A stretch of 64,000 bases of DNA from an uncultured bacterium (GTDB taxonomy: Bacteria > Fidelibacterota > Marinisomatia > Marinisomatales > Marinisomataceae): contig CALSRE010000002.1 of assembly GCA_943788675.1 (NCBI GenBank), positions 137,371 to 201,370 of the forward strand, read 5' to 3'. Within the stretch, counting starts at the first letter, position 1. The number at the start of each line of letters is the position of its first letter. Both the position numbers and the translations under genes were made by a program. Under the pieces are notes generated by a model, which searched no databases, was not told the DNA's origin, and saw only the letters and a program-made list of their open reading frames with translations. This document shows, in pieces, positions 6,690 through 14,942 of the stretch.

Positions 6690-7403
6690 TTATTTTTTTA
6701 AAATTTCGTTAATTTTTTTGAAACTTTCACTTAATTCTGATACCATTTTTTGCGTATACGGATTGTAGCTTTGAATATCCTCAAACAACTCCCATGAATC
6801 ATTGCATGTTTGATTTACCAATTTATGTAAGGCCTTATAACCCTCTGTGTCAATCCTTGTTTGATCTGTACCAAAATCATCTATAACTCTTCCAATAAAG
6901 TGAGTTAATCCCTGAGATCTTGCAGCCATCTTATCATGTTCTTCAGCTGAGATTTCTTCGATAGTGATATTTTGGCTATTAAAATAATTTTTCCAAAATT
7001 CAAATCTACCATGCAAGTCCCTTACTGACTCCATTGTCATTACAGATCCGCTATCCTTTAAAGAATCCGGACCAAACAACGGATGAGTAGCAATAATATC
7101 TATTTCAGAAGATAGGTTTTCTATCATAACATTCTTTGGAAACACTTTTACAGAGCAAACATCTATAACGGTTTTTTCCCCTTGAATATCATTTTTAACC
7201 TCATGTATTAATGATTCAAAATCTCTAATAGGTACAGCTATGAAAATTGTTTCATTTTGAAGAGCTTTTGCCAAAGAAACTTCATTGACATCAGAGTTAT
7301 TAACGCTTTTTTTATCGTAAACATCCACTTCAAAGCCTTTTGAAAGCAGTGCATGTAACATTGCCCCAAACCTTCCATAGCCAATAATGCTTACTTTTTT
7401 CAT
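6690..7403 (-). CDS. tyrA: prephenate/arogenate dehydrogenase (short, no regulatory domain)
   Basis: N-terminal Rossmann motif IIGYGRFG and the THPLFGP motif. It overlaps the pheA stop in an ATGA arrangement. Confidence 0.8.
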   Translation of the reverse strand: MKKVSIIGYGRFGAMLHALLSKGFEVDVYDKKSVNNSDVNEVSLAKALQNETIFIAVPIRDFESLIHEVKNDIQGEKTVIDVCSVKVFPKNVMIENLSSEIDIIATHPLFGPDSLKDSGSVMTMESVRDLHGRFEFWKNYFNSQNITIEEISAEEHDKMAARSQGLTHFIGRVIDDFGTDQTRIDTEGYKALHKLVNQTCNDSWELFEDIQSYNPYTQKMVSELSESFKKINEILKK

Positions 7404-7969
7404 GATGACAGTTTCTTTACGGCTAAAAAGAGAGTTAAATTTCTCTTTAAATCATGAATATCTTTTTGCAGAATATTTAAACCATACTTTTCAGCTGAAA
7501 ACTTACTAGCTATTACGGCCACATTTTCAGATAATTTTCCTTCTGATAAATCTTGCGCTGCTTTTGCAGTATCATCTTCTTCAACAAGCTTTTTAGACCA
7601 AAACTGTTCAGCTAAATAATCTTTGCACTGCTTTAAGGCCTGTTGATGAGAATGAATTTCTTCAATATCTCCAAGAGCAACTCCATTCTTAGCTAGCAAA
7701 TTTTGGCTAATCTCAATATAAAACATATCAATTATTTCGCATTGATTTTTTGCTAAAGCTTCGATGCTTTCAATTACTACCCCGCCCTGTGCATTTTCCA
7801 TTGCAAAAATGCCTGTATCAATACTTCCATCTGTCAGACTGTTTAATACATTCATTGAACCAACCAAATAAGCTAATTCAAAGTCGTCTATACCAAATTT
7901 TTTACAATACGATTTAGCTGCTTGCTCGCTAAAACTACCTTCTATTCCCTGAATTCCTACTTTAATCAT
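7400..7969 (-). CDS. pheA: prephenate dehydratase, catalytic PDT domain only (no ACT domain)
   Basis: Contains GIQGIEGSFSEQAA, FAMENAQGGVV, SHQQALKQC and NLTLFL(AV), which match PDT-domain landmarks. At 189 aa there is no room for the C-terminal ACT domain. Confidence 0.8.
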   Translation of the reverse strand: MIKVGIQGIEGSFSEQAAKSYCKKFGIDDFELAYLVGSMNVLNSLTDGSIDTGIFAMENAQGGVVIESIEALAKNQCEIIDMFYIEISQNLLAKNGVALGDIEEIHSHQQALKQCKDYLAEQFWSKKLVEEDDTAKAAQDLSEGKLSENVAVIASKFSAEKYGLNILQKDIHDLKRNLTLFLAVKKLSS

Positions 7970-8394
7970 TTTCTCTCCAATATATGCTCTATTGCTGTAA
8001 TATAACTTTGTTTACCTTCACCGTAAAATTGACCAATACAAACAGTTTTAATCACAGAAGTTTTTCTAAAATTTTCTCGTTTATGAATATTTGACAAATG
8101 CACTTCCACGGTCTTTAACTGCGTTGCTACTATTGCATCTCTTAATGCATAAGAATAATGCGTTAAAGCTCCTGCGTTAAGAATACAATAATCAACATCT
8201 TTTCTTTTTTGGTGTAAAAAATCTATAATACTTCCTTCTGAATTTGACTGAAAAAATTCAAAATCAATATCTTGGCAACTATCGTGGTTTTTGATCCAAT
8301 TATTAACTTCCTCAAGAGAGTCGTATCCATAAATCTCTGGCTCTCTTTCTCCAAGCAAGTTAAGGTTAGGTCCATTTACAATAATTATTTTCAT
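7966..8394 (-). CDS. aroQ: 3-dehydroquinate dehydratase, type II
   Basis: IIVNGPNLNLLGEREPEIYG and LNAGALTHYSYALRDA motifs. Confidence 0.93.
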   Translation of the reverse strand: MKIIIVNGPNLNLLGEREPEIYGYDSLEEVNNWIKNHDSCQDIDFEFFQSNSEGSIIDFLHQKRKDVDYCILNAGALTHYSYALRDAIVATQLKTVEVHLSNIHKRENFRKTSVIKTVCIGQFYGEGKQSYITAIEHILERK

Positions 8395-9461
8395 AATACT
8401 TTTAAACTCTCAATAATTTGCTCAAATGATATATTGTCATTTATTTGTGACTTTCCAATCTCATCCAACAAAATAAATTTTACATTTGAAGCTCTGATTT
8501 TCTTGTCACTTTTAATATAGGTCATAAACTTATCATAATCTTCAATACTTACTGATGGTAGATCAAATTTTGATAATAAATATAAAGATTTATTGTACTC
8601 ATTGTTTGAAAGATTTCCATACTTATTTGATAAATATAAAGCACATTTCATCCCATAAAAAATTGCTTCTCCATGCAACAAAGTTCTGTAGTCAAAATAT
8701 CCCTCGATTGCATGTCCTACAGTATGTCCAAAATTCAATATCATTCGTAACTCATTTTCATTGACATCCTCACTAACAACATCGCTTTTTATCTCACAAC
8801 ACTGTATGATGATTTTTTCTAAAATTTTTATTGATTTATTTTCTATAATATTATCAATACTTGAAGCGATAAAATCAAATAATTCTCTATCATAAATAAA
8901 ACCATATTTTATTGCTTCTGCTAGAGCTGCATTTATTTGCCTATCTGGAAGTGTTAATAAAAAATTGATATCTATTTCAACCGCTTTTGGTTGATAAATC
9001 CTTCCAACAAGATTTTTGCCACTTTTAAGGTTAATACCAGTTTTACCTCCAATAGAAGAATCTACCATAGCTAATAATGTAGTAGGATATTGAACATAAT
9101 CAATTCCTCTCATATAAACTGAAGCAGCAAATCCAGCAATATCACCTACAACTCCTCCGCCAACTGCAAGAACAATTGATGAACGATCAAAGTGTTCTGA
9201 AGCCATCTTGTTGGTAATTTGTGTAATTGTTTCAAATGATTTAGCTTGCTCTCCATCATCTATTAAATGAATACTGATATTTGATAACTTAGATAATTGA
9301 TCAAATTTTTCTTTATAAAGCTTGTAAATATTATCCTGGCTGATGAGCATACATTGAGATTTTGTTGAAGATGCAACATGCAATATTGAGCTTACAAAGC
9401 TATCAATCATGCTTATTTTATAGCTGTCTAAACCTAAATCTACTTTAATTTTATTAGCCAT
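8391..9461 (-). CDS. aroB: 3-dehydroquinate synthase
   Basis: GGGVVGDIAGFAA, the NLVG segment (GKNLVGRIYQP) and FGHTVGHAIE motifs. I chose the start at the ATG at 9461 (MANKIKV...). The 33-codon extension in the track lies inside aroK. Confidence 0.9.
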   Translation of the reverse strand: MANKIKVDLGLDSYKISMIDSFVSSILHVASSTKSQCMLISQDNIYKLYKEKFDQLSKLSNISIHLIDDGEQAKSFETITQITNKMASEHFDRSSIVLAVGGGVVGDIAGFAASVYMRGIDYVQYPTTLLAMVDSSIGGKTGINLKSGKNLVGRIYQPKAVEIDINFLLTLPDRQINAALAEAIKYGFIYDRELFDFIASSIDNIIENKSIKILEKIIIQCCEIKSDVVSEDVNENELRMILNFGHTVGHAIEGYFDYRTLLHGEAIFYGMKCALYLSNKYGNLSNNEYNKSLYLLSKFDLPSVSIEDYDKFMTYIKSDKKIRASNVKFILLDEIGKSQINDNISFEQIIESLKVL

Positions 9462-9963
9462 TAACAAACTCCATAATCTTATCACAGTTATCACTAAGAG
9501 AATTTCTGTCAGTATCAACCTCACAGCTTGATAAAGAAAGATATAATTCTTTTCGTTCATTAAAAATCTTTTCTAACAACTGATGCTTGTTATTTTCTTT
9601 AAGTAATGGTCTTGAAGAGTCACCTTCGAGTCTATCTGTCAATACTTGCATAGATGTTTTGAGATAAATACAACACATACTAGCCATCAAATCATAACTC
9701 TTCTTAAATGTAACTGCTCCACCACCAACGGCTAAAACAATATTATTTCTTGATGAATATTTTTTTATTTCATCATATTCAAATTCTCTAAATTGTACTT
9801 CGCTTTTACTAAAAAGCTCATTAATTGATAAATTTTGCTTATTTATAATTTCTTGATCGATATCTATAAAACTCCATCCAAGCTTTTCTGAAAGCATTTT
9901 TCCGGTTGAAGATTTTCCAGATCCCATCATCCCAATTAAACAAAGTTGATTAGTATTTTCCAC
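9454..9963 (-). CDS. aroK: shikimate kinase
   Basis: Walker A motif LIGMMGSGKSSTGK and a size of 169 aa. Confidence 0.9.
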   Translation of the reverse strand: MENTNQLCLIGMMGSGKSSTGKMLSEKLGWSFIDIDQEIINKQNLSINELFSKSEVQFREFEYDEIKKYSSRNNIVLAVGGGAVTFKKSYDLMASMCCIYLKTSMQVLTDRLEGDSSRPLLKENNKHQLLEKIFNERKELYLSLSSCEVDTDRNSLSDNCDKIMEFVNG

Positions 9964-11110
9964 TGCTCTTGATATGTTTTTTTAATTGCTCCATGCTATC
10001 TCCACCAAATTTTTCTAATAAAGCGTCAGCTAAAACAATAGCTAACATGCTCTCACCAATAATTGATGCTGCAGGAACAGCGCAAGAATCGGTTCTTTCT
10101 TTATGTGCAAGCTTGGGCTCCATATTGGTTAGATCGATTGATCTGAGCGGCTTTATAAGCGTAGAAATGGGCTTCATGCTCACTTTTACGTGTATGGGCT
10201 GAGCATTGCTCATTCCTCCTTCAATACCTCCGGCATTGTTGCTTGCTCTCACGATTTTATCATTCTCATATAATATTTCATCATGTAATTCACTACCAAA
10301 TGCAGCAGAAGAGGCAAATCCGGCTCCAACTTCTACTCCTTTAAAAGCATTTACAGACATCATTGCCTGAGATATTCTTGCCTGCAATTTTCCATCTGCG
10401 TTAATATAGCTTCCTAACCCGTATGGCATACCTTTTGCAATAACTTCAAAAGATCCTCCAACAGAATCTCCGTTACTTTTGGCTTGATCAATAACTTCTA
10501 TCATTCTGTTCTCAGCCTCTTTATCTAAACATCGAACGGAGGATTTATCAGCTAAACTGTTCAATTTTGACATGCTTAAATCTTCATCTAATGCTTTAGA
10601 ATCTATGACATCATGAATTTGATAGACTCTGCTCCCAATTTGTATTCCAACCTCTTCTAATAGTTTTCTACAAACTGCACCAATCGCAACCCTCATCGCA
10701 GTTTCTCTAGCAGATGATCTTTCAAGAACATTTCTAATATCATCAAAATCATATTTCATTACTCCAGCTAAATCAGCATGACCAGGTCTTGGCATCGTAA
10801 CTTTTTTATGGTCTTTTTTTGGTTTACCAACAGCCATTCTATCTTCCCAATTAACCCAATCTAAATTTTTAATAATTAAAGAAATTGGCGATCCTAAAGT
10901 AACCTGATGTCTAACGCCGGAGAAAATTTCAGCAAAATCTTTTTCAATTTTCATTCTCTTTCCCCTACCGTGACCCTGCATTCTTCTAAGCAAATCAATT
11001 GATATATATTCCTCGGTAAGCTCTAAACCTGCAGGTATTCCTTCAATGATTCCTGTCAGCCCTTTTCCATGCGATTCGCCAGCAGTCATATATGATATCT
11101 TCTTTAACAT
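9950..11110 (-). CDS. aroC: chorismate synthase
   Basis: TAGESHGKGL, RPGHADL and ERSSARETA signatures. Confidence 0.95.
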   Translation of the reverse strand: MLKKISYMTAGESHGKGLTGIIEGIPAGLELTEEYISIDLLRRMQGHGRGKRMKIEKDFAEIFSGVRHQVTLGSPISLIIKNLDWVNWEDRMAVGKPKKDHKKVTMPRPGHADLAGVMKYDFDDIRNVLERSSARETAMRVAIGAVCRKLLEEVGIQIGSRVYQIHDVIDSKALDEDLSMSKLNSLADKSSVRCLDKEAENRMIEVIDQAKSNGDSVGGSFEVIAKGMPYGLGSYINADGKLQARISQAMMSVNAFKGVEVGAGFASSAAFGSELHDEILYENDKIVRASNNAGGIEGGMSNAQPIHVKVSMKPISTLIKPLRSIDLTNMEPKLAHKERTDSCAVPAASIIGESMLAIVLADALLEKFGGDSMEQLKKHIKSSGKY

Positions 11111-11925
11111 ATTATTTTCTCCAATTGTTTAATAATGGAATCAATTTTTGAATTCACATTATAGGTAGTTTCATTCCAAATTTCAATAGACTTCAATGCT
11201 TGAAATATTAGCATATCTAGACCATTAACTTTTTTTCCGTTAGTTTCAAATCTATTTAAAAACATTGTTGATTTAGAAGTGTAAATAAGATCTATTAAAT
11301 CAGCATTATCATTGACAGCAAAGTCAAAAAAATTATCACTATCGTTCATTGAATACATTCCAAGAGGAGTTGTATTAATAATCAATTCACAAGTTGAATG
11401 CTGCTTCCTAAATAAAACAATGTTATCATAGCCTAATTCTTTGGCAAATTCTATAACTTCAAGTGCATTTTTTTCACTTTTATTTTTAACAACAATCTCT
11501 CTTGCTTCTGAATCAATCAACGATTTAATAATAGTTTTTGCAGAAGAGCCTGCGCCTAAAACCATGCATTTTTTATTCTTTACTGCAATACCGTTTCTTG
11601 AACAAAGCATATCAAAACCATATTTGTCTGTATTGTATCCTTTTAAAATACCTTCTTTCATTGAAATACAATTAACATTATTTAGTATTTTCGCCTCGTG
11701 ATTAAGCTCATCCAAATAACCAATTACTTCATTCTTAAAAGGAATAGTAACATTTAACCCATTATAAGATGTTATTACTTTTTCAAAGAAGCTATCTAGC
11801 TCACGTTCAGTTAGTTTAATTTTTTCAAGAAAACAATCCTTAATATCTAGTTCTTTGTACAAAACTTTGTGCAATTCTGGGCTAATACTTTTAGAAACTG
11901 GATTACCTATTAATGCATATTTCAT
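11104..11925 (-). CDS. aroE: shikimate 5-dehydrogenase
   Basis: IGNPVSKSISP, NVTIPFK and VLGAGSSAK (NADP-binding) motifs. Confidence 0.9.
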   Translation of the reverse strand: MKYALIGNPVSKSISPELHKVLYKELDIKDCFLEKIKLTERELDSFFEKVITSYNGLNVTIPFKNEVIGYLDELNHEAKILNNVNCISMKEGILKGYNTDKYGFDMLCSRNGIAVKNKKCMVLGAGSSAKTIIKSLIDSEAREIVVKNKSEKNALEVIEFAKELGYDNIVLFRKQHSTCELIINTTPLGMYSMNDSDNFFDFAVNDNADLIDLIYTSKSTMFLNRFETNGKKVNGLDMLIFQALKSIEIWNETTYNVNSKIDSIIKQLEKIIC

Positions 11926-13172
11926 TCAGCTACTCTTTTTATCAAATTAAAGAAGTTTGGTAATGAAATATCGATGCAATCTTTGTTATCTAGATGATAT
12001 TTTCCAAACGATGTTAAGCTCAAGATTGTGAAAGCCATAGCTATTCGATGATCATGAAAAGTTGTAATTTCAGCTAACTTATCAGGCTTACCTCCCTCGA
12101 CAAAAAGACTGTTATCTTTTTCGTAAGCATTAATTCCAAAAGCATTAAGATTATGTATAATTGCGTGCAACCTATCACATTCTTTATATTTTAATTCTTC
12201 TATATTTCGAAATATTGTAATGCCATTAGAGTATGCTGCTACAACAGATAAAATAGGTATCTCATCTATGATTGAAGGAATTATTTCAGACTCTACTTCT
12301 ACCGAAGTTAGATCAGAAGTGCTAAAAGTTATATCTCCGGTCTTTTCACCATTATTCAACTGTTTATTGCCCACAGCTAAATTGCAATTCATTTTTTTTA
12401 GGACGTCAATAAATCCAATTCTAGTTTTATTCAACAGCACATTATTAAGAGTTAATTCTGAGTTATCATTTATTACGGCTATAGCTGCAAAAAAAGCTGC
12501 AGATGATGGATCTGAAGGAATTGTTATATTAATAGGATTAAGTTTATTTTTTAGAGGATAAATATTAATACTTTTGTCTATAAAACTAATAGTTGCGCCC
12601 ATATTTTTTAACATAACCTCTGTATGATTTCTTGTTAAAATATTCTCATGAACTGTTGATGGACTATCTCCTCCTAAGGCGGCTAGCAAAATACATGATT
12701 TGACTTGTGCGCTAGCAACAGGAATTTTATAATCAATAGAGCGTATTCCTTCTTTAGCATTTATGGTCAATGGCAACAAATTATCGTTAGAAGAAATATC
12801 ACAACCCATTTTTTGCAATGGAGTGATAATACGTTTCATTGGCCTAGAAGACAATGAGCTATCTCCAACAAGAGTAAAATCTAATTTTTGTGAAGATAGG
12901 AGCCCTGAAATTAGTCTTGTTGTTGTTCCAGAATTTCCACAATCTAATTTTTCATTTGGGTTAGTTAATTCTACCCCCTCAATAGTAATAGTTTGATTTC
13001 TACTATCAATTTTAGCTCCGCAGGCTTTTAATGCATTGATTGTTGATTGTAAGTCAGCACCATCATTCAAATTCCTAATGGTACTTTTTCCATCTGCAAT
13101 AGATGAAAGCATTATTGCGCGATGAGAAATTGACTTATCTCCCGGTAAATATAATGTTCCTTTAACTTGCAT
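11922..13172 (-). CDS. aroA: 3-phosphoshikimate 1-carboxyvinyltransferase (EPSP synthase)
   Basis: LPGDKSISHRA, CGNSGTTTRL and DHRIAMAF motifs. Confidence 0.95.
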   Translation of the reverse strand: MQVKGTLYLPGDKSISHRAIMLSSIADGKSTIRNLNDGADLQSTINALKACGAKIDSRNQTITIEGVELTNPNEKLDCGNSGTTTRLISGLLSSQKLDFTLVGDSSLSSRPMKRIITPLQKMGCDISSNDNLLPLTINAKEGIRSIDYKIPVASAQVKSCILLAALGGDSPSTVHENILTRNHTEVMLKNMGATISFIDKSINIYPLKNKLNPINITIPSDPSSAAFFAAIAVINDNSELTLNNVLLNKTRIGFIDVLKKMNCNLAVGNKQLNNGEKTGDITFSTSDLTSVEVESEIIPSIIDEIPILSVVAAYSNGITIFRNIEELKYKECDRLHAIIHNLNAFGINAYEKDNSLFVEGGKPDKLAEITTFHDHRIAMAFTILSLTSFGKYHLDNKDCIDISLPNFFNLIKRVAE

Positions 13173-14513
13173 TTATTTCTTTAATTTTTCTGCAATGTTA
13201 AATGAAAGCTCTAAAGCTTGGTTCGCATTTAATCTTGGATCACAATGAGTATGATATCTAGAGTTCAAATCATCATCTCCAACCTTATAAATTCCTCCAG
13301 TACATTCAGTAACGTTCTGACCGGTCATTTCTAGATGAATACCTCCAAGATGTCTTTCTTTCGACTTTAAAATTTCAATGGCTTTACTTGTTTCATTCAA
13401 AAGTGAGTTAAAGTCTCTTGTTTTTAGACCTGACGATGACTTAACTGTGTTGCCGTGCATAGGATCTGATATCCATAATACATTCTTTTTATGCTTTACT
13501 ATAACATCAACCAATTCAGGGAGATACTTATCAATACTTTCTTCTCCATACCTAAAAATAAGTGAAATCTTTCCTGGATCATTGGTAGGATTAATTTTAT
13601 CTATTATTTTGATAAGCTCTTGATTATCAAGGCTAGGGCCGCATTTAATACCAATCGGATTGCTAATGCCGCTACAGTACTCAACATGTGCACTATCAAT
13701 AAAACGAGTTCTATCACCTATCCATATAAAATGTGCTGAAGTACAATATATTTCATTAGAAAGTGAATCAACTCTGGTTAAAGCTTCTTCGTATGGAAGA
13801 TGTAAGCCTTCATGACTAGTGTAGAAGTCAACAGTATTTAAATCAATTACAGTTGAAGTATTTACACCAACCGCGTCCATAAAATCTAAATATTCATTAA
13901 TTTTACCAGCAATCTCTTCATATCTCTTTCCTTCTTCGCTAGCTTTTACAAATCCCATATTCCAGGAATTAACTTTACGCAAATTTGCAAAGCCTCCTTG
14001 AGCAAAAGATCGCAATAAATTCAATGTTGAAGCTGACTGTGAATAAGCTCTTAACAGTCTTGCAGGATTTGGTTCACGTTTTTCTTCAGAAAACTCTATT
14101 CCGTTGATTGAATCGCCATAATAGCTATTTAATGTCTTTCCATTAACAGTTTCACGATCCGAAGATCTAGGTTTTGCAAATTGTCCAGCGATTCTTCCAA
14201 GCTTGATTACTGGAACTTTTAATTTAGCTGTAATAACTGCACTCATTTGCAGAATAACCCTAAAAGTGTCTCTAATATTATTTGCATTGAATTCTTTGAA
14301 ACTTTCTGCACAATCACCTCCCTGCACCAAAAATCCATCTCCATTACTTGCCTTAGCTAGTTCTTGCTTTAAATTTCTACACTCTCCAGCAAATACTAGA
14401 GGAGGAAAACCTTCAAGTTTTTTTAATGCTTTTTCAAGCTGTTTTACATCATTATACTCCGGAATATGTTTAATGGTAAAATTTTTCCATGAATCTTTTG
14501 TCCATTTTGACAT
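13173..14513 (-). CDS. 3-deoxy-7-phosphoheptulonate (DAHP) synthase, class II
   Basis: 446 aa with PPLVFAGECRNL and GFLVQGGDCAESF, which are characteristic of class II (plant/actinobacterial type) DAHP synthases. Confidence 0.9.
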   Translation of the reverse strand: MSKWTKDSWKNFTIKHIPEYNDVKQLEKALKKLEGFPPLVFAGECRNLKQELAKASNGDGFLVQGGDCAESFKEFNANNIRDTFRVILQMSAVITAKLKVPVIKLGRIAGQFAKPRSSDRETVNGKTLNSYYGDSINGIEFSEEKREPNPARLLRAYSQSASTLNLLRSFAQGGFANLRKVNSWNMGFVKASEEGKRYEEIAGKINEYLDFMDAVGVNTSTVIDLNTVDFYTSHEGLHLPYEEALTRVDSLSNEIYCTSAHFIWIGDRTRFIDSAHVEYCSGISNPIGIKCGPSLDNQELIKIIDKINPTNDPGKISLIFRYGEESIDKYLPELVDVIVKHKKNVLWISDPMHGNTVKSSSGLKTRDFNSLLNETSKAIEILKSKERHLGGIHLEMTGQNVTECTGGIYKVGDDDLNSRYHTHCDPRLNANQALELSFNIAEKLKK

Positions 14514-14773
14514 TATAATTCCTCGACTTTCTTTGATTCTGTAATGATAGATTTATAGATAGGTTTTAAAAATGAAGCTTCTACAGTAGAAAACCTTGCA
14601 TCAATTTTAGCATAAATTGCATTTTCTCTTTCTTGGTCTAAGACTGGTAGTCCTTCTTGTTTTTTGATATACCCTATTGTATTTACCGCATCTAATCTTT
14701 CTAATAATAAGTCAAAAATTTGATTATCAGCTTTATCTATTCTATATCTGTTTTCTAATATTTTTTTGTTCAT
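14513..14773 (-). CDS. chorismate mutase (AroQ class, monofunctional)
   Basis: RIDKADNQIFDLLLERLDAVNTIGYIKK is a typical CM_2 helix. I prefer the ATG at 14773 (MNKKIL...) because the GGAGG SD lies inside the first codons of the track ORF (ATGGAGGAAAAAATG). Confidence 0.85.
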   Translation of the reverse strand: MNKKILENRYRIDKADNQIFDLLLERLDAVNTIGYIKKQEGLPVLDQERENAIYAKIDARFSTVEASFLKPIYKSIITESKKVEEL

Positions 14774-14790
14774 TTTTTCCTCCATATAAC

Positions 14791-14819
14791 AAAAAACCCT
14801 AGCGGGTTTTGCTAGGGTT
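14791..14819 (-). terminator. intrinsic terminator, candidate attenuator of the aromatic amino-acid operon
   Basis: The minus strand reads AACCCUAGC-AAAACCC-GCUAGGGUU followed by UUUU. That is a 9-bp stem and a 7-nt loop, ending 18 nt before the chorismate mutase ATG and 29 nt after the leader ORF stop. Confidence 0.7.
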
Positions 14820-14847
14820 CATGTAGAGTTTTGATATAATTATATCT

Positions 14848-14907
14848 TTAGGCTTCTACAGTCCCCCTGCTTCTAAAATAAAAATAGTAGTTATAAAATT
14901 TGCTCAT
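14848..14907 (-). CDS. Phe/Tyr-rich leader peptide (19 aa): MSKFYNYYFYFRSRGTVEA
   Basis: My translation of the minus strand gives ATG AGC AAA TTT TAT AAC TAC TAT TTT TAT TTT AGA AGC AGG GGG ACT GTA GAA GCC TAA. Seven of codons 4-11 are Phe or Tyr. It lies between a promoter-like element and a terminator, directly upstream of the pheA/tyrA-containing operon. It is too short for the ORF track. Confidence 0.6.
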   Translation of the reverse strand: MSKFYNYYFYFRSRGTVEA

Positions 14908-14913
14908 TGAACT

Positions 14914-14942
14914 AGTTTAAACATCGATATATACGGATTCAA
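14914..14942 (-). promoter_or_regulatory. candidate sigma-70 promoter of the leader/aromatic operon (TTGAAT-17 nt-TAAACT)
   Basis: On the minus strand, TTGAAT lies at 14942-14937 and TAAACT at 14919-14914. The leader ATG (14907) is 6 nt downstream of the -10 element. Confidence 0.45.

Follow-up and report, generated by a model that had tools for sequence, protein, structure and literature searches.

An aromatic-rich leader with two competing folds

The window analyzed here is a 64,000-nucleotide (nt) stretch of contig CALSRE010000002.1 (positions 137,371 to 201,370 of the forward strand), from an uncultured bacterium of the family Marinisomataceae. On its minus strand, an operon for phenylalanine (Phe), tyrosine (Tyr), and shikimate-pathway enzymes starts with a chorismate mutase (CM) gene and lies downstream of a penicillin-acylase gene. 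The gap between these two genes holds a short open reading frame (ORF) rich in Phe and Tyr codons, an intrinsic terminator, and two segments able to pair into an antiterminator (Table 1). Together, they form a candidate ribosome-mediated attenuator, which is the subject of this work. The original prediction, made from the letters of the window, gave the gap as 165 nt, a figure that holds to the first in-frame ATG of CM (14785) and becomes 177 nt when measured to the ATG preceded by a Shine-Dalgarno (SD) sequence. Its coordinates were all right to within one nucleotide.

Direct reading of the minus strand places the leader ORF exactly where it had been predicted, with Phe or Tyr at seven of eight successive codons (codons 4 to 11) and no tryptophan (Trp) codon, again as claimed. 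In a window of 32% G+C, TTT and TAT triplets are common. Even so, the leader ORF stands alone among 602 ATG-started ORFs of 10 to 35 codons on both strands in having at least seven Phe, Tyr, or Trp codons per eight, and second-order Markov simulations give a chance expectation of 0.075 such ORFs per window.

The terminator, AACCCUAGC-AAAACCC-GCUAGGGUU followed by a U-run (14819-14791), was likewise found as predicted, except that it lies 28 nt and not 29 nt beyond the leader stop codon, a trivial difference. It ends 18 nt ahead of the SD-led CM ATG, as had been stated. A hairpin scan calls a stem of 10 bp (14820-14794), and the span from the AUG to the U-run is about 115 nt. Outside long ORFs, the window has few strong intrinsic terminators; the two strongest are this one and a hairpin at the end of the operon. 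A search of the window for other attenuator-like leaders, that is, terminators just upstream of a same-strand gene, returned none beyond this one.

A mutually exclusive antiterminator had been proposed by eye. When the transcript is folded up to the terminator 3' arm, the minimum free energy (MFE) structure is indeed this antiterminator, at -15.6 kcal/mol versus -13.7 kcal/mol for the terminator alone; the antiterminator is thus an energetic match for the terminator, and it is the first of the two to form. For 12 of 13 leaders, the transcript made before the terminator has the antiterminator as its MFE structure, and in the window it still folds when the footprint of a ribosome stalled at codons 4 to 9 is removed. 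The MFE of the whole leader is not significantly below that of shuffled sequences (z = -1.5), as expected because a switch has two competing folds. For this reason, stage-specific folds were used.

Table 1. Features of the leader, its operon, and their surroundings, in window coordinates
Feature	Position	Strand	Remarks
Penicillin-amidase (acylase) gene	17362-14951	minus	Pfam PF01804; upstream of leader
-35-like hexamer TTGAAT	14942-14937	minus	Read directly
-10-like hexamer TAAACT	14919-14914	minus	17-nt spacer from TTGAAT; ends 6 nt before leader AUG
Leader ORF, 19 codons plus stop	14907-14848	minus	MSKFYNYYFYFRSRGTVEA, read directly from sequence; codons ATG AGC AAA TTT TAT AAC TAC TAT TTT TAT TTT AGA AGC AGG GGG ACT GTA GAA GCC TAA
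Regulatory codons 4-11, F Y N Y Y F Y F	14875..14898	minus	3 TTT, 3 TAT, 1 TAC
Antiterminator 5' arm GC.GGGG..CUGUAGA	14870-14855	minus	Leader codons 13-18, just upstream of stop codon
Leader stop codon	14850-14848	minus	
Antiterminator 3' arm UCUACA.U..CCCU.GC	14827-14811	minus	Overlaps terminator 5' arm
Intrinsic terminator	14820-14791	minus	9-10 bp GC-rich stem, 7-nt loop, U-run; hairpin scan, folding, covariation
SD GGAGG	14783-14779	minus	
Chorismate mutase, first structural gene	ATG 14773; feature 14513..14783 including SD	minus	Pfam CM_2, E = 2e-18
Rest of operon	6690..14513	minus	Class II DAHP synthase, aroA, aroE, aroC, aroK, aroB, aroQ, PDT, PDH (Pfam)
Probable operon-end terminator	4804-4768 (~4804-4758 with T-runs)	minus	Hairpin of about -13 to -15 kcal/mol on either strand, T-runs on both sides

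Conservation of the leader across Marinimicrobia

Relatives were found through their DAHP synthase (DAHPS), in reference genomes and then in metagenomes. The enzyme is 79 to 84% identical in six reference genomes and about 60% identical in many more Marinimicrobia, and the metagenome scan added twelve loci with 80 to 99% identity. These matches assign the window to Candidatus Marinimicrobia (SAR406; also Marinisomatota or "Neomarinimicrobiota"). Comparison of orthologous loci, which had been proposed with the original prediction, found the Phe/Tyr-rich ORF and the terminator in many diverged Marinimicrobia lineages and throughout the window's own clade. Indeed, all 18 clade loci have an in-frame Phe/Tyr-rich short ORF at the same position, a terminator, and an antiterminator before CM-DAHPS-aroAECK, with peptides such as MKNFFDYYYFRSRGTVEA, MKINNNFYYYFNGRGYVGT, MKNFNYYYFYFRCKGTIGA, and MNNFYNFYFYFERRGTVGA. 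Indels among the clade leaders are multiples of three, and the Phe and Tyr positions are shuffled, while the aromatic run and the position of the stop codon are kept. Judging from these alignments, the conserved trait of the leader is its composition, not its peptide sequence.

In a 17-sequence alignment of the clade, 98.7% of the terminator cells are paired and three pairs have changed on both sides, giving a covariation score that is reached by none of 500 shuffles. The antiterminator is 92% paired across the 17 sequences and includes one compensatory G-C to A-U change, in L006, which suggests modest support from within the clade. Since this clade-internal covariation is too weak to decide the matter, a family-wide swap test, described below, was used.

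At about 60% DAHPS identity, the gene order is either CM, leader, PDT-PDH-DAHPS-aroA and onward or leader, PDH-DAHPS (PDT and PDH being prephenate dehydratase and prephenate dehydrogenase). Unrelated in sequence, the leaders of these diverged lineages have the same architecture: an aromatic-rich short ORF, a GC hairpin, and a U-run before the first Phe/Tyr gene. Examples of their peptides are MNYIITKNYYSSYFFFTRERVL, MNIEKFYNFYGYFTHAGEM, MFNYYYWNYRKSGG, MATKYYYQTYFNDGLRVSP, MKIFFYYFKYAIEGLKNCP, MKRKELTGFYYYYYLTNGGVY, and MNRAFLIFSYYFKYFFRSQEVY, and peptide length ranges from 14 to 24 residues across lineages. Upstream of the leader lies a gene that differs between lineages and encodes an acylase, an amino-acid kinase, TrpA, CM, a class IV aminotransferase, or a short-chain dehydrogenase, and the genes downstream are always Phe, Tyr, or shikimate genes.

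A uniform detector, requiring an ATG-started ORF of 9 to 40 codons with at least five Phe, Tyr, or Trp residues in eight codons and a terminator within 95 nt, was applied to 160 loci; it matches 39 of them on the strand of the operon and none on the other strand, the unmatched loci including those whose operon start lies beyond the DNA covered. In L017, the gap before PDH holds just a degenerate candidate leader. No leader was detected at alphaproteobacterial stand-alone DAHPS loci, including those of Pelagibacteraceae type (L022-L080 and L134-L160, with L023, L025, L031, L040, and L042 as Marinimicrobia-like exceptions within those ranges). The class II DAHP synthase of the SAR11-labelled genomes (L022-L041) is 57 to 58% identical to the Marinimicrobia enzyme and stands alone, with no adjoining aro, phe, or tyr genes and no leader. 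In the same similarity range, L031, labelled "uncultured bacterium," has the Marinimicrobia-type layout of CM, leader, and PDT-PDH-DAHPS.

The reading frame of the leaders carries the aromatic signal. Across 35 distinct leader ORFs, Phe, Tyr, and Trp codons number 230 in frame 0 versus 60 and 95 in the other frames, and internal stop codons number 0 versus 65 and 57.

The antiterminator was examined family-wide by a footprint test, in which the RNA covered by the stalled ribosome was removed and the rest folded up to the terminator loop in 34 non-redundant leaders. In all 34, the terminator 5' arm pairs with a segment located between 24 and 4 nt upstream of the stop codon of the leader, with a pairing energy under the dinucleotide-shuffle mean (34 of 34). 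The antiterminator 5' arm thus lies next to the leader stop codon, and the regulatory codons lie upstream of the arm. The pairings are lineage specific: GGGUUGGAGU/ACUCCAACCC, GGGUUUUG/CAAAACCC, GAGGUUU/AAACCUC, CGGGC.GGAUGAU/AUCAUUUG.CCCG, and GGGGC/GCCCC. In the swap test, the last nine codons plus stop of 22 lineage representatives were paired with the terminator-arm regions of all lineages. The mean energy was -12.8 kcal/mol with the representative's own arm versus -9.4 kcal/mol with the arms of other lineages, a difference reached by 0 of 20,000 permutations, and nine representatives ranked their own arm first of 22. We read this result as covariation at the family level. The peptide C termini are rich in Gly and Arg because GGN and AGG codons provide the G-run for this pairing.

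Trp codons accompany trp genes

In many Marinimicrobia loci, trpF-trpB-trpA is joined gaplessly to PDT-PDH-DAHPS. If the leaders sense codons, such trp-fused operons are predicted to start with a Trp-containing leader. Since the PDT query matched the window's own clade only, TrpF homologues were used to reach trp-fused contigs, the TrpF proteins of these lineages going down to about 49% identity. A 16-gene superoperon, trpEGDCFBA-PDT-PDH-DAHPS-aroAECKBQ, was found at L161 (5754-20393) and also at L162-L166, L168, L170-L173, and L176, with CM ahead of it and, in between, a leader-containing gap of about 180 nt. The DNA covered for L167, L169, and L175 stops short of the operon start. The antiterminator/terminator layout of these leaders is as elsewhere in the family. 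Their peptides, MNTNNYYSWYWFFNQDGGS (encoded at L161 6078-6137), MNTKYFYSWYWFFNREGVS, MFNSINTSFYSWFWFYFRQGVFLS, and MNYKNIENYYNWYWFFSLKGVT, carry two Trp codons within the run of Tyr and Phe (SWYWFF, SWFWFYF, NWYWFF). The superoperon leader would represent one putative attenuator for all three aromatic amino acids.

At least two Trp codons are present in four of four distinct leaders before trp-containing operons versus one of 29 others (Fisher p = 1.2e-4, a value not corrected for phylogeny, the lineages concerned being related). The sole exception is L110, with a SWFWFF leader directly before PDT. Here (L110 1016-1205), the first ~55 to 107 nt of trpE follow right after the terminator, joined to the sequence ahead of PDT, and are 80 to 97% identical to the trpE start of L161 and L176. 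Its sister L107 has a shorter trpE scar (about 1132-1205), and its two TGG codons are now TTG and TAT, giving NLFYFF. We interpret the trpE remnant as the scar of a trp-block deletion, recent in L110. Our comparison indicates that leader codon content follows operon gene content, since Trp codons come with the trp genes and decay after trp loss, as in L107.

Other features of these contigs were recorded. In the superoperon contigs, a threonine/methionine cluster lies upstream of CM (L161 1-5728), with genes for an ACT-domain aspartokinase-homoserine dehydrogenase and for a pyridoxal phosphate (PLP) enzyme of Cys/Met metabolism, together with asd, thrB, and thrC; in some of these contigs the PLP enzyme gene is split into two short ORFs, which may reflect a frameshift or an assembly error. 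The operon of L174, a Neomarinimicrobiota metagenome-assembled genome (MAG), is without DAHPS between PDH and aroA.

A probable start of transcription at the leader AUG

The original prediction had placed a TTGAAT-17-TAAACT promoter before the leader, and both boxes are present with this spacing. It had also placed the transcription start site at or near the AUG, an idea supported by a conserved -10 box 6 to 8 nt upstream. The best -10 box of sigma-70 type (TAAACT, TAATAT, TAAAAT, or TAACTT) ends 6 to 8 nt before the first in-frame AUG in 33 of 36 leaders, and a TTGnnn box is found 16 to 18 nt upstream of it in most lineages. As a control, a comparable promoter-like pair at a spacing of 5 to 9 nt occurs at 38 of 1600 ATGs. 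Within the -10 box, the alignment of 17 clade sequences shows no variation at the T, A, A, and last T, while neighboring intergenic positions vary. An SD-like motif was not found ahead of any leader examined. The conserved -10 box suggests that the leader message is probably leaderless, with transcription starting at or next to the AUG.

Proposed mechanism and alternatives

We consider it very likely that the leader is a ribosome-mediated attenuator setting the Phe/Tyr and shikimate operon by the supply of charged tRNA-Phe and tRNA-Tyr. This interpretation, already that of the original prediction, is supported by the folding analyses, the conservation within the clade and in diverged lineages, the variation of the upstream gene, and the conserved -10 box; the computational checks suggested with that prediction were all in its favor. 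Terminator covariation, the swap test, and the agreement of Trp codons with trp genes add to this support. Transcriptional control is also plausible because PDT (189 amino acids [aa]) and PDH (237 aa) show no Pfam match to an ACT domain, which agrees with the earlier claim that pheA and tyrA lack such domains.

In the mechanism that we infer, which involves translation of the ORF, ribosome stalling, and a response to amino acids, transcription would start at or beside the leader AUG and a ribosome would load on the 5' end as soon as this is exposed. With Phe and Tyr in ample supply, the ribosome would pass the Phe/Tyr codons, reach the stop codon, and cover the antiterminator 5' arm. With this arm masked, the terminator would form and transcription would end about 18 nt before CM. 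When Phe-tRNA or Tyr-tRNA is scarce, the ribosome would stall in codons 4 to about 9, leaving the 5' arm free to pair with the 3' arm, which includes the 5' arm of the terminator. The terminator would then be blocked, and RNA polymerase would read into CM, DAHPS, aroAECKBQ, PDT, and PDH.

Several observations weigh against this model or limit its reach. A ribosome stalled at codons 10 and 11 covers part of the antiterminator 5' arm, so that termination would be relieved only by stalls at about codons 4 to 9. A residual 7-bp hairpin, AAAACCC/GGGUUUU, can form alongside the antiterminator; it should be a poor terminator, since it is predicted to consume most of the U-tract, and we regard it as a minor caveat. 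Within the clade, the antiterminator is nearly invariant, and 28 of 500 shuffles reach its covariation score. The relatedness of the lineages that enter the Trp-codon statistic has been mentioned. An SD-like motif precedes just 13 of 49 (~27%) ordinary genes of the window, so its lack ahead of the leaders argues only weakly that they are leaderless. In L174, CM adjoins trpE (29-nt gap, L174 3898-4187) and there is no space for a leader; the attenuator is therefore not universal in the phylum. Finally, folds across lineages gave no 1:2 hairpin (anti-antiterminator or pause) that is conserved; in the window, L001, and L002 alone, full-length folding pairs the Phe/Tyr codons with the post-stop loop in an AU-only helix. 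For this reason the default without translation would be read-through, unlike in Escherichia coli trp, and the leader would work as a two-state switch simpler than the E. coli one.

Among the alternatives, the one that survives best, although we consider it improbable, is that the choice between terminator and antiterminator is made not by ribosome stalling but by an RNA-binding protein, a small-molecule riboswitch, or an uncharged tRNA acting on a T-box. The alternative structures are indeed well supported while translation of the ORF is inferred only, and the aromatic operons of Firmicutes are controlled by T-boxes or TRAP. Against this, no Rfam family matches the leader at E values up to 10, and none reaches its gathering score in the three diverged loci L161, L010, and L018; these negative results rule out a T-box, the known leader families, and known riboswitches. 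The weak Rfam matches obtained (HTH-XRE, CRISPR-DR65, snoRNAs) lie inside coding genes and were set aside as chance. Furthermore, the ~115 nt from AUG to U-run are too short for a T-box, and no sequence outside the helices is conserved across lineages as a ligand or protein site. Nor would such a switch account for the in-frame aromatic run, for where the stop codon sits with respect to the 5' arm, or for the co-occurrence of Trp codons with trp genes.

Less credible still is the possibility that the ORF encodes a functional aromatic-rich micropeptide followed by an ordinary terminator, the operon being regulated otherwise. The ORF is conserved and in frame, and some attenuator peptides do act in trans, such as peTrpL of Sinorhizobium (PMC7298713). 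Yet the peptide sequence is not conserved across lineages, where only the aromatic composition and an RNA-constrained 3' end are kept in peptides that vary in length, and pairing with the terminator arm accounts for its C-terminal codons. Nor would a structural peptide be predicted to gain and lose Trp codons with the trp genes. The alternative raised with the original prediction, that the hairpin is the terminator of the upstream penicillin-acylase unit and the ORF a chance product of AT-rich intergenic DNA, can be rejected with near certainty: although no other terminator lies between the acylase stop codon and the hairpin, which may well also halt acylase read-through, and although TTT and TAT are common at this base composition, so aromatic-rich an ORF is rarely expected by chance, is in frame throughout the clade, has no opposite-strand counterparts, matches operon content in its codons, and stays, as a unit with terminator and antiterminator, before Phe/Tyr/shikimate genes while the gene upstream changes.

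Ribosome-mediated attenuation thus being preferred for the window, a wider proposal can be considered, namely that across Marinimicrobia transcription of the aromatic pathway as a whole is controlled mainly by this compact (~115 nt), leaderless, two-state device, which would allow read-through in the absence of translation and whose codon mix (Phe/Tyr or Phe/Tyr/Trp) would co-evolve with gene content, Trp codons coming and going as trp genes join or leave the operon. To this proposal we give about even chances. If true, a single sensor would integrate two or three amino acids for a whole supraoperon, and its control would span 10 genes here and 16 in relatives, in streamlined marine bacteria with PDT and PDH devoid of allosteric domains.

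Comparison with known attenuators

The closest functional analogue of the Marinimicrobia leader is aroR-aroF of Corynebacterium glutamicum, in which a mixed Phe/Tyr leader (F-Y-F) precedes DAHP synthase and acts by ribosome-stalling attenuation (PMC11802643, citing Neshat et al. 2014, J Biotechnol 190:55); a measured effect came there from Phe limitation only. The two systems share mixed Phe/Tyr codons upstream of an operon that starts the common aromatic pathway, and they differ in the number of regulatory codons, three in aroR-aroF and seven of eight here. The C. glutamicum system also belongs to another phylum, the Actinomycetota, and has no detectable sequence relationship with the leader described here. 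In addition, the unit here has at least 10 genes, which cover all seven steps of the shikimate pathway as well as CM, PDT, and PDH; in relatives it also takes in trpEGDCFBA.

The original prediction took a single attenuator over CM through tyrA to be undescribed in this type of organism. This stands in part: a mixed Phe/Tyr attenuator on a DAHP-synthase operon is known in C. glutamicum (PMC11802643), and our literature search, which did not cover subscription journals, found no report linking Marinimicrobia/SAR406 to attenuation.

Leader-peptide attenuation is classical in Proteobacteria, with E. coli trpL, pheL, and hisL and, more broadly, the trp, his, leu, and thr attenuators. Like pheL-pheA and these classical attenuators, the Marinimicrobia leader has codons for the end products, mutually exclusive antiterminator and terminator, and a stop codon placed to mask the 5' arm. 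Unlike them, it does not match the Rfam families Phe_leader, Trp_leader, His_leader, or leu/phe leader, it has no SD, and it is probably leaderless. It further differs from E. coli trp in that no conserved 1:2 hairpin was found, and from pheL in that its codons are mixed (Phe/Tyr or Phe/Tyr/Trp) and would address a whole pathway instead of pheA alone. The attenuator transcripts of C. glutamicum are reportedly leaderless as well.

In mycobacteria, polycysteine short ORFs that start at a leaderless 5'-AUG sense amino-acid supply through their codon run and attenuate downstream operon genes (bioRxiv 10.1101/834739). Those ORFs differ from the present ones in having Cys codons and Cys genes and in belonging to the Actinomycetota. 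Their proposed mechanism is said not to be a canonical switch between intrinsic terminator and antiterminator. A large aromatic supraoperon under attenuation control of transcription, aro-trp, is known from Bacillus subtilis, and for other phyla, attenuators predicted to precede tyrA supraoperons were already listed many years ago (PMC1173090). The sensors in B. subtilis and other Firmicutes are TRAP or uncharged tRNA on a T-box, unlike the translating ribosome that would act as the sensor here.

Because no Rfam leader, T-box, or riboswitch family matches, the leader is not a member of a curated RNA family. The sequence comparisons point to a Phe/Tyr attenuator family (Phe/Tyr/Trp in relatives) that is widespread in an uncultured marine phylum and probably leaderless. 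Its mechanism is a textbook one, and we see the finding as a solid extension of known biology and not as a surprise. It would extend leader-peptide attenuation to another deep branch of FCB-related bacteria and add what is probably a leaderless attenuator ORF from outside the Actinobacteria. Marinimicrobia (SAR406) abound in the ocean, hardly any of them have been cultured, and very little is known of their gene regulation; the leader offers, from sequence alone, a concrete and testable regulatory element for a central biosynthetic pathway in these bacteria. It may also provide a clean natural experiment, in which Trp codons are added when trp genes join the operon and decay after their deletion. 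The short ORF and its attenuator, at present unannotated, deserve annotation in Marinimicrobia MAGs, and public marine metatranscriptomes could be used to test the model without cultivation.

The operon and neighboring genes

Pfam searches bear out the original description of an operon that includes PDT and PDH and has no trp genes. Besides DAHPS, it encodes EPSP synthase, shikimate dehydrogenase, chorismate synthase, shikimate kinase, 3-dehydroquinate (DHQ) synthase, and type II dehydroquinase, from genes that abut or overlap. The ATG of the longest CM ORF (14785) overlaps the SD and is not conserved in relatives. The true CM start is likely to be the SD-led ATG 14773, which would give a protein of 86 aa. 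The longest shikimate kinase ORF (9963-9454) shares about 107 nt (window 9454-9560) with the longest ORF for DHQ synthase (9560-8391, 389 aa). Since DHQ synthase has 356 aa in relatives, translation of aroB probably begins further downstream, at a start codon close to the stop codon of aroK.

Three tightly packed co-directional ORFs of 120, 200, and 296 aa follow tyrA (6679-4817, minus strand) and are probably cotranscribed with the aromatic operon. They could be assigned to no confident family and gave only weak matches (SMR transporter model, PB1 domain). The hairpin that probably ends the operon sits between the last operon ORF and a gene similar to fructose-6-phosphate aldolase/transaldolase (4720-4046).

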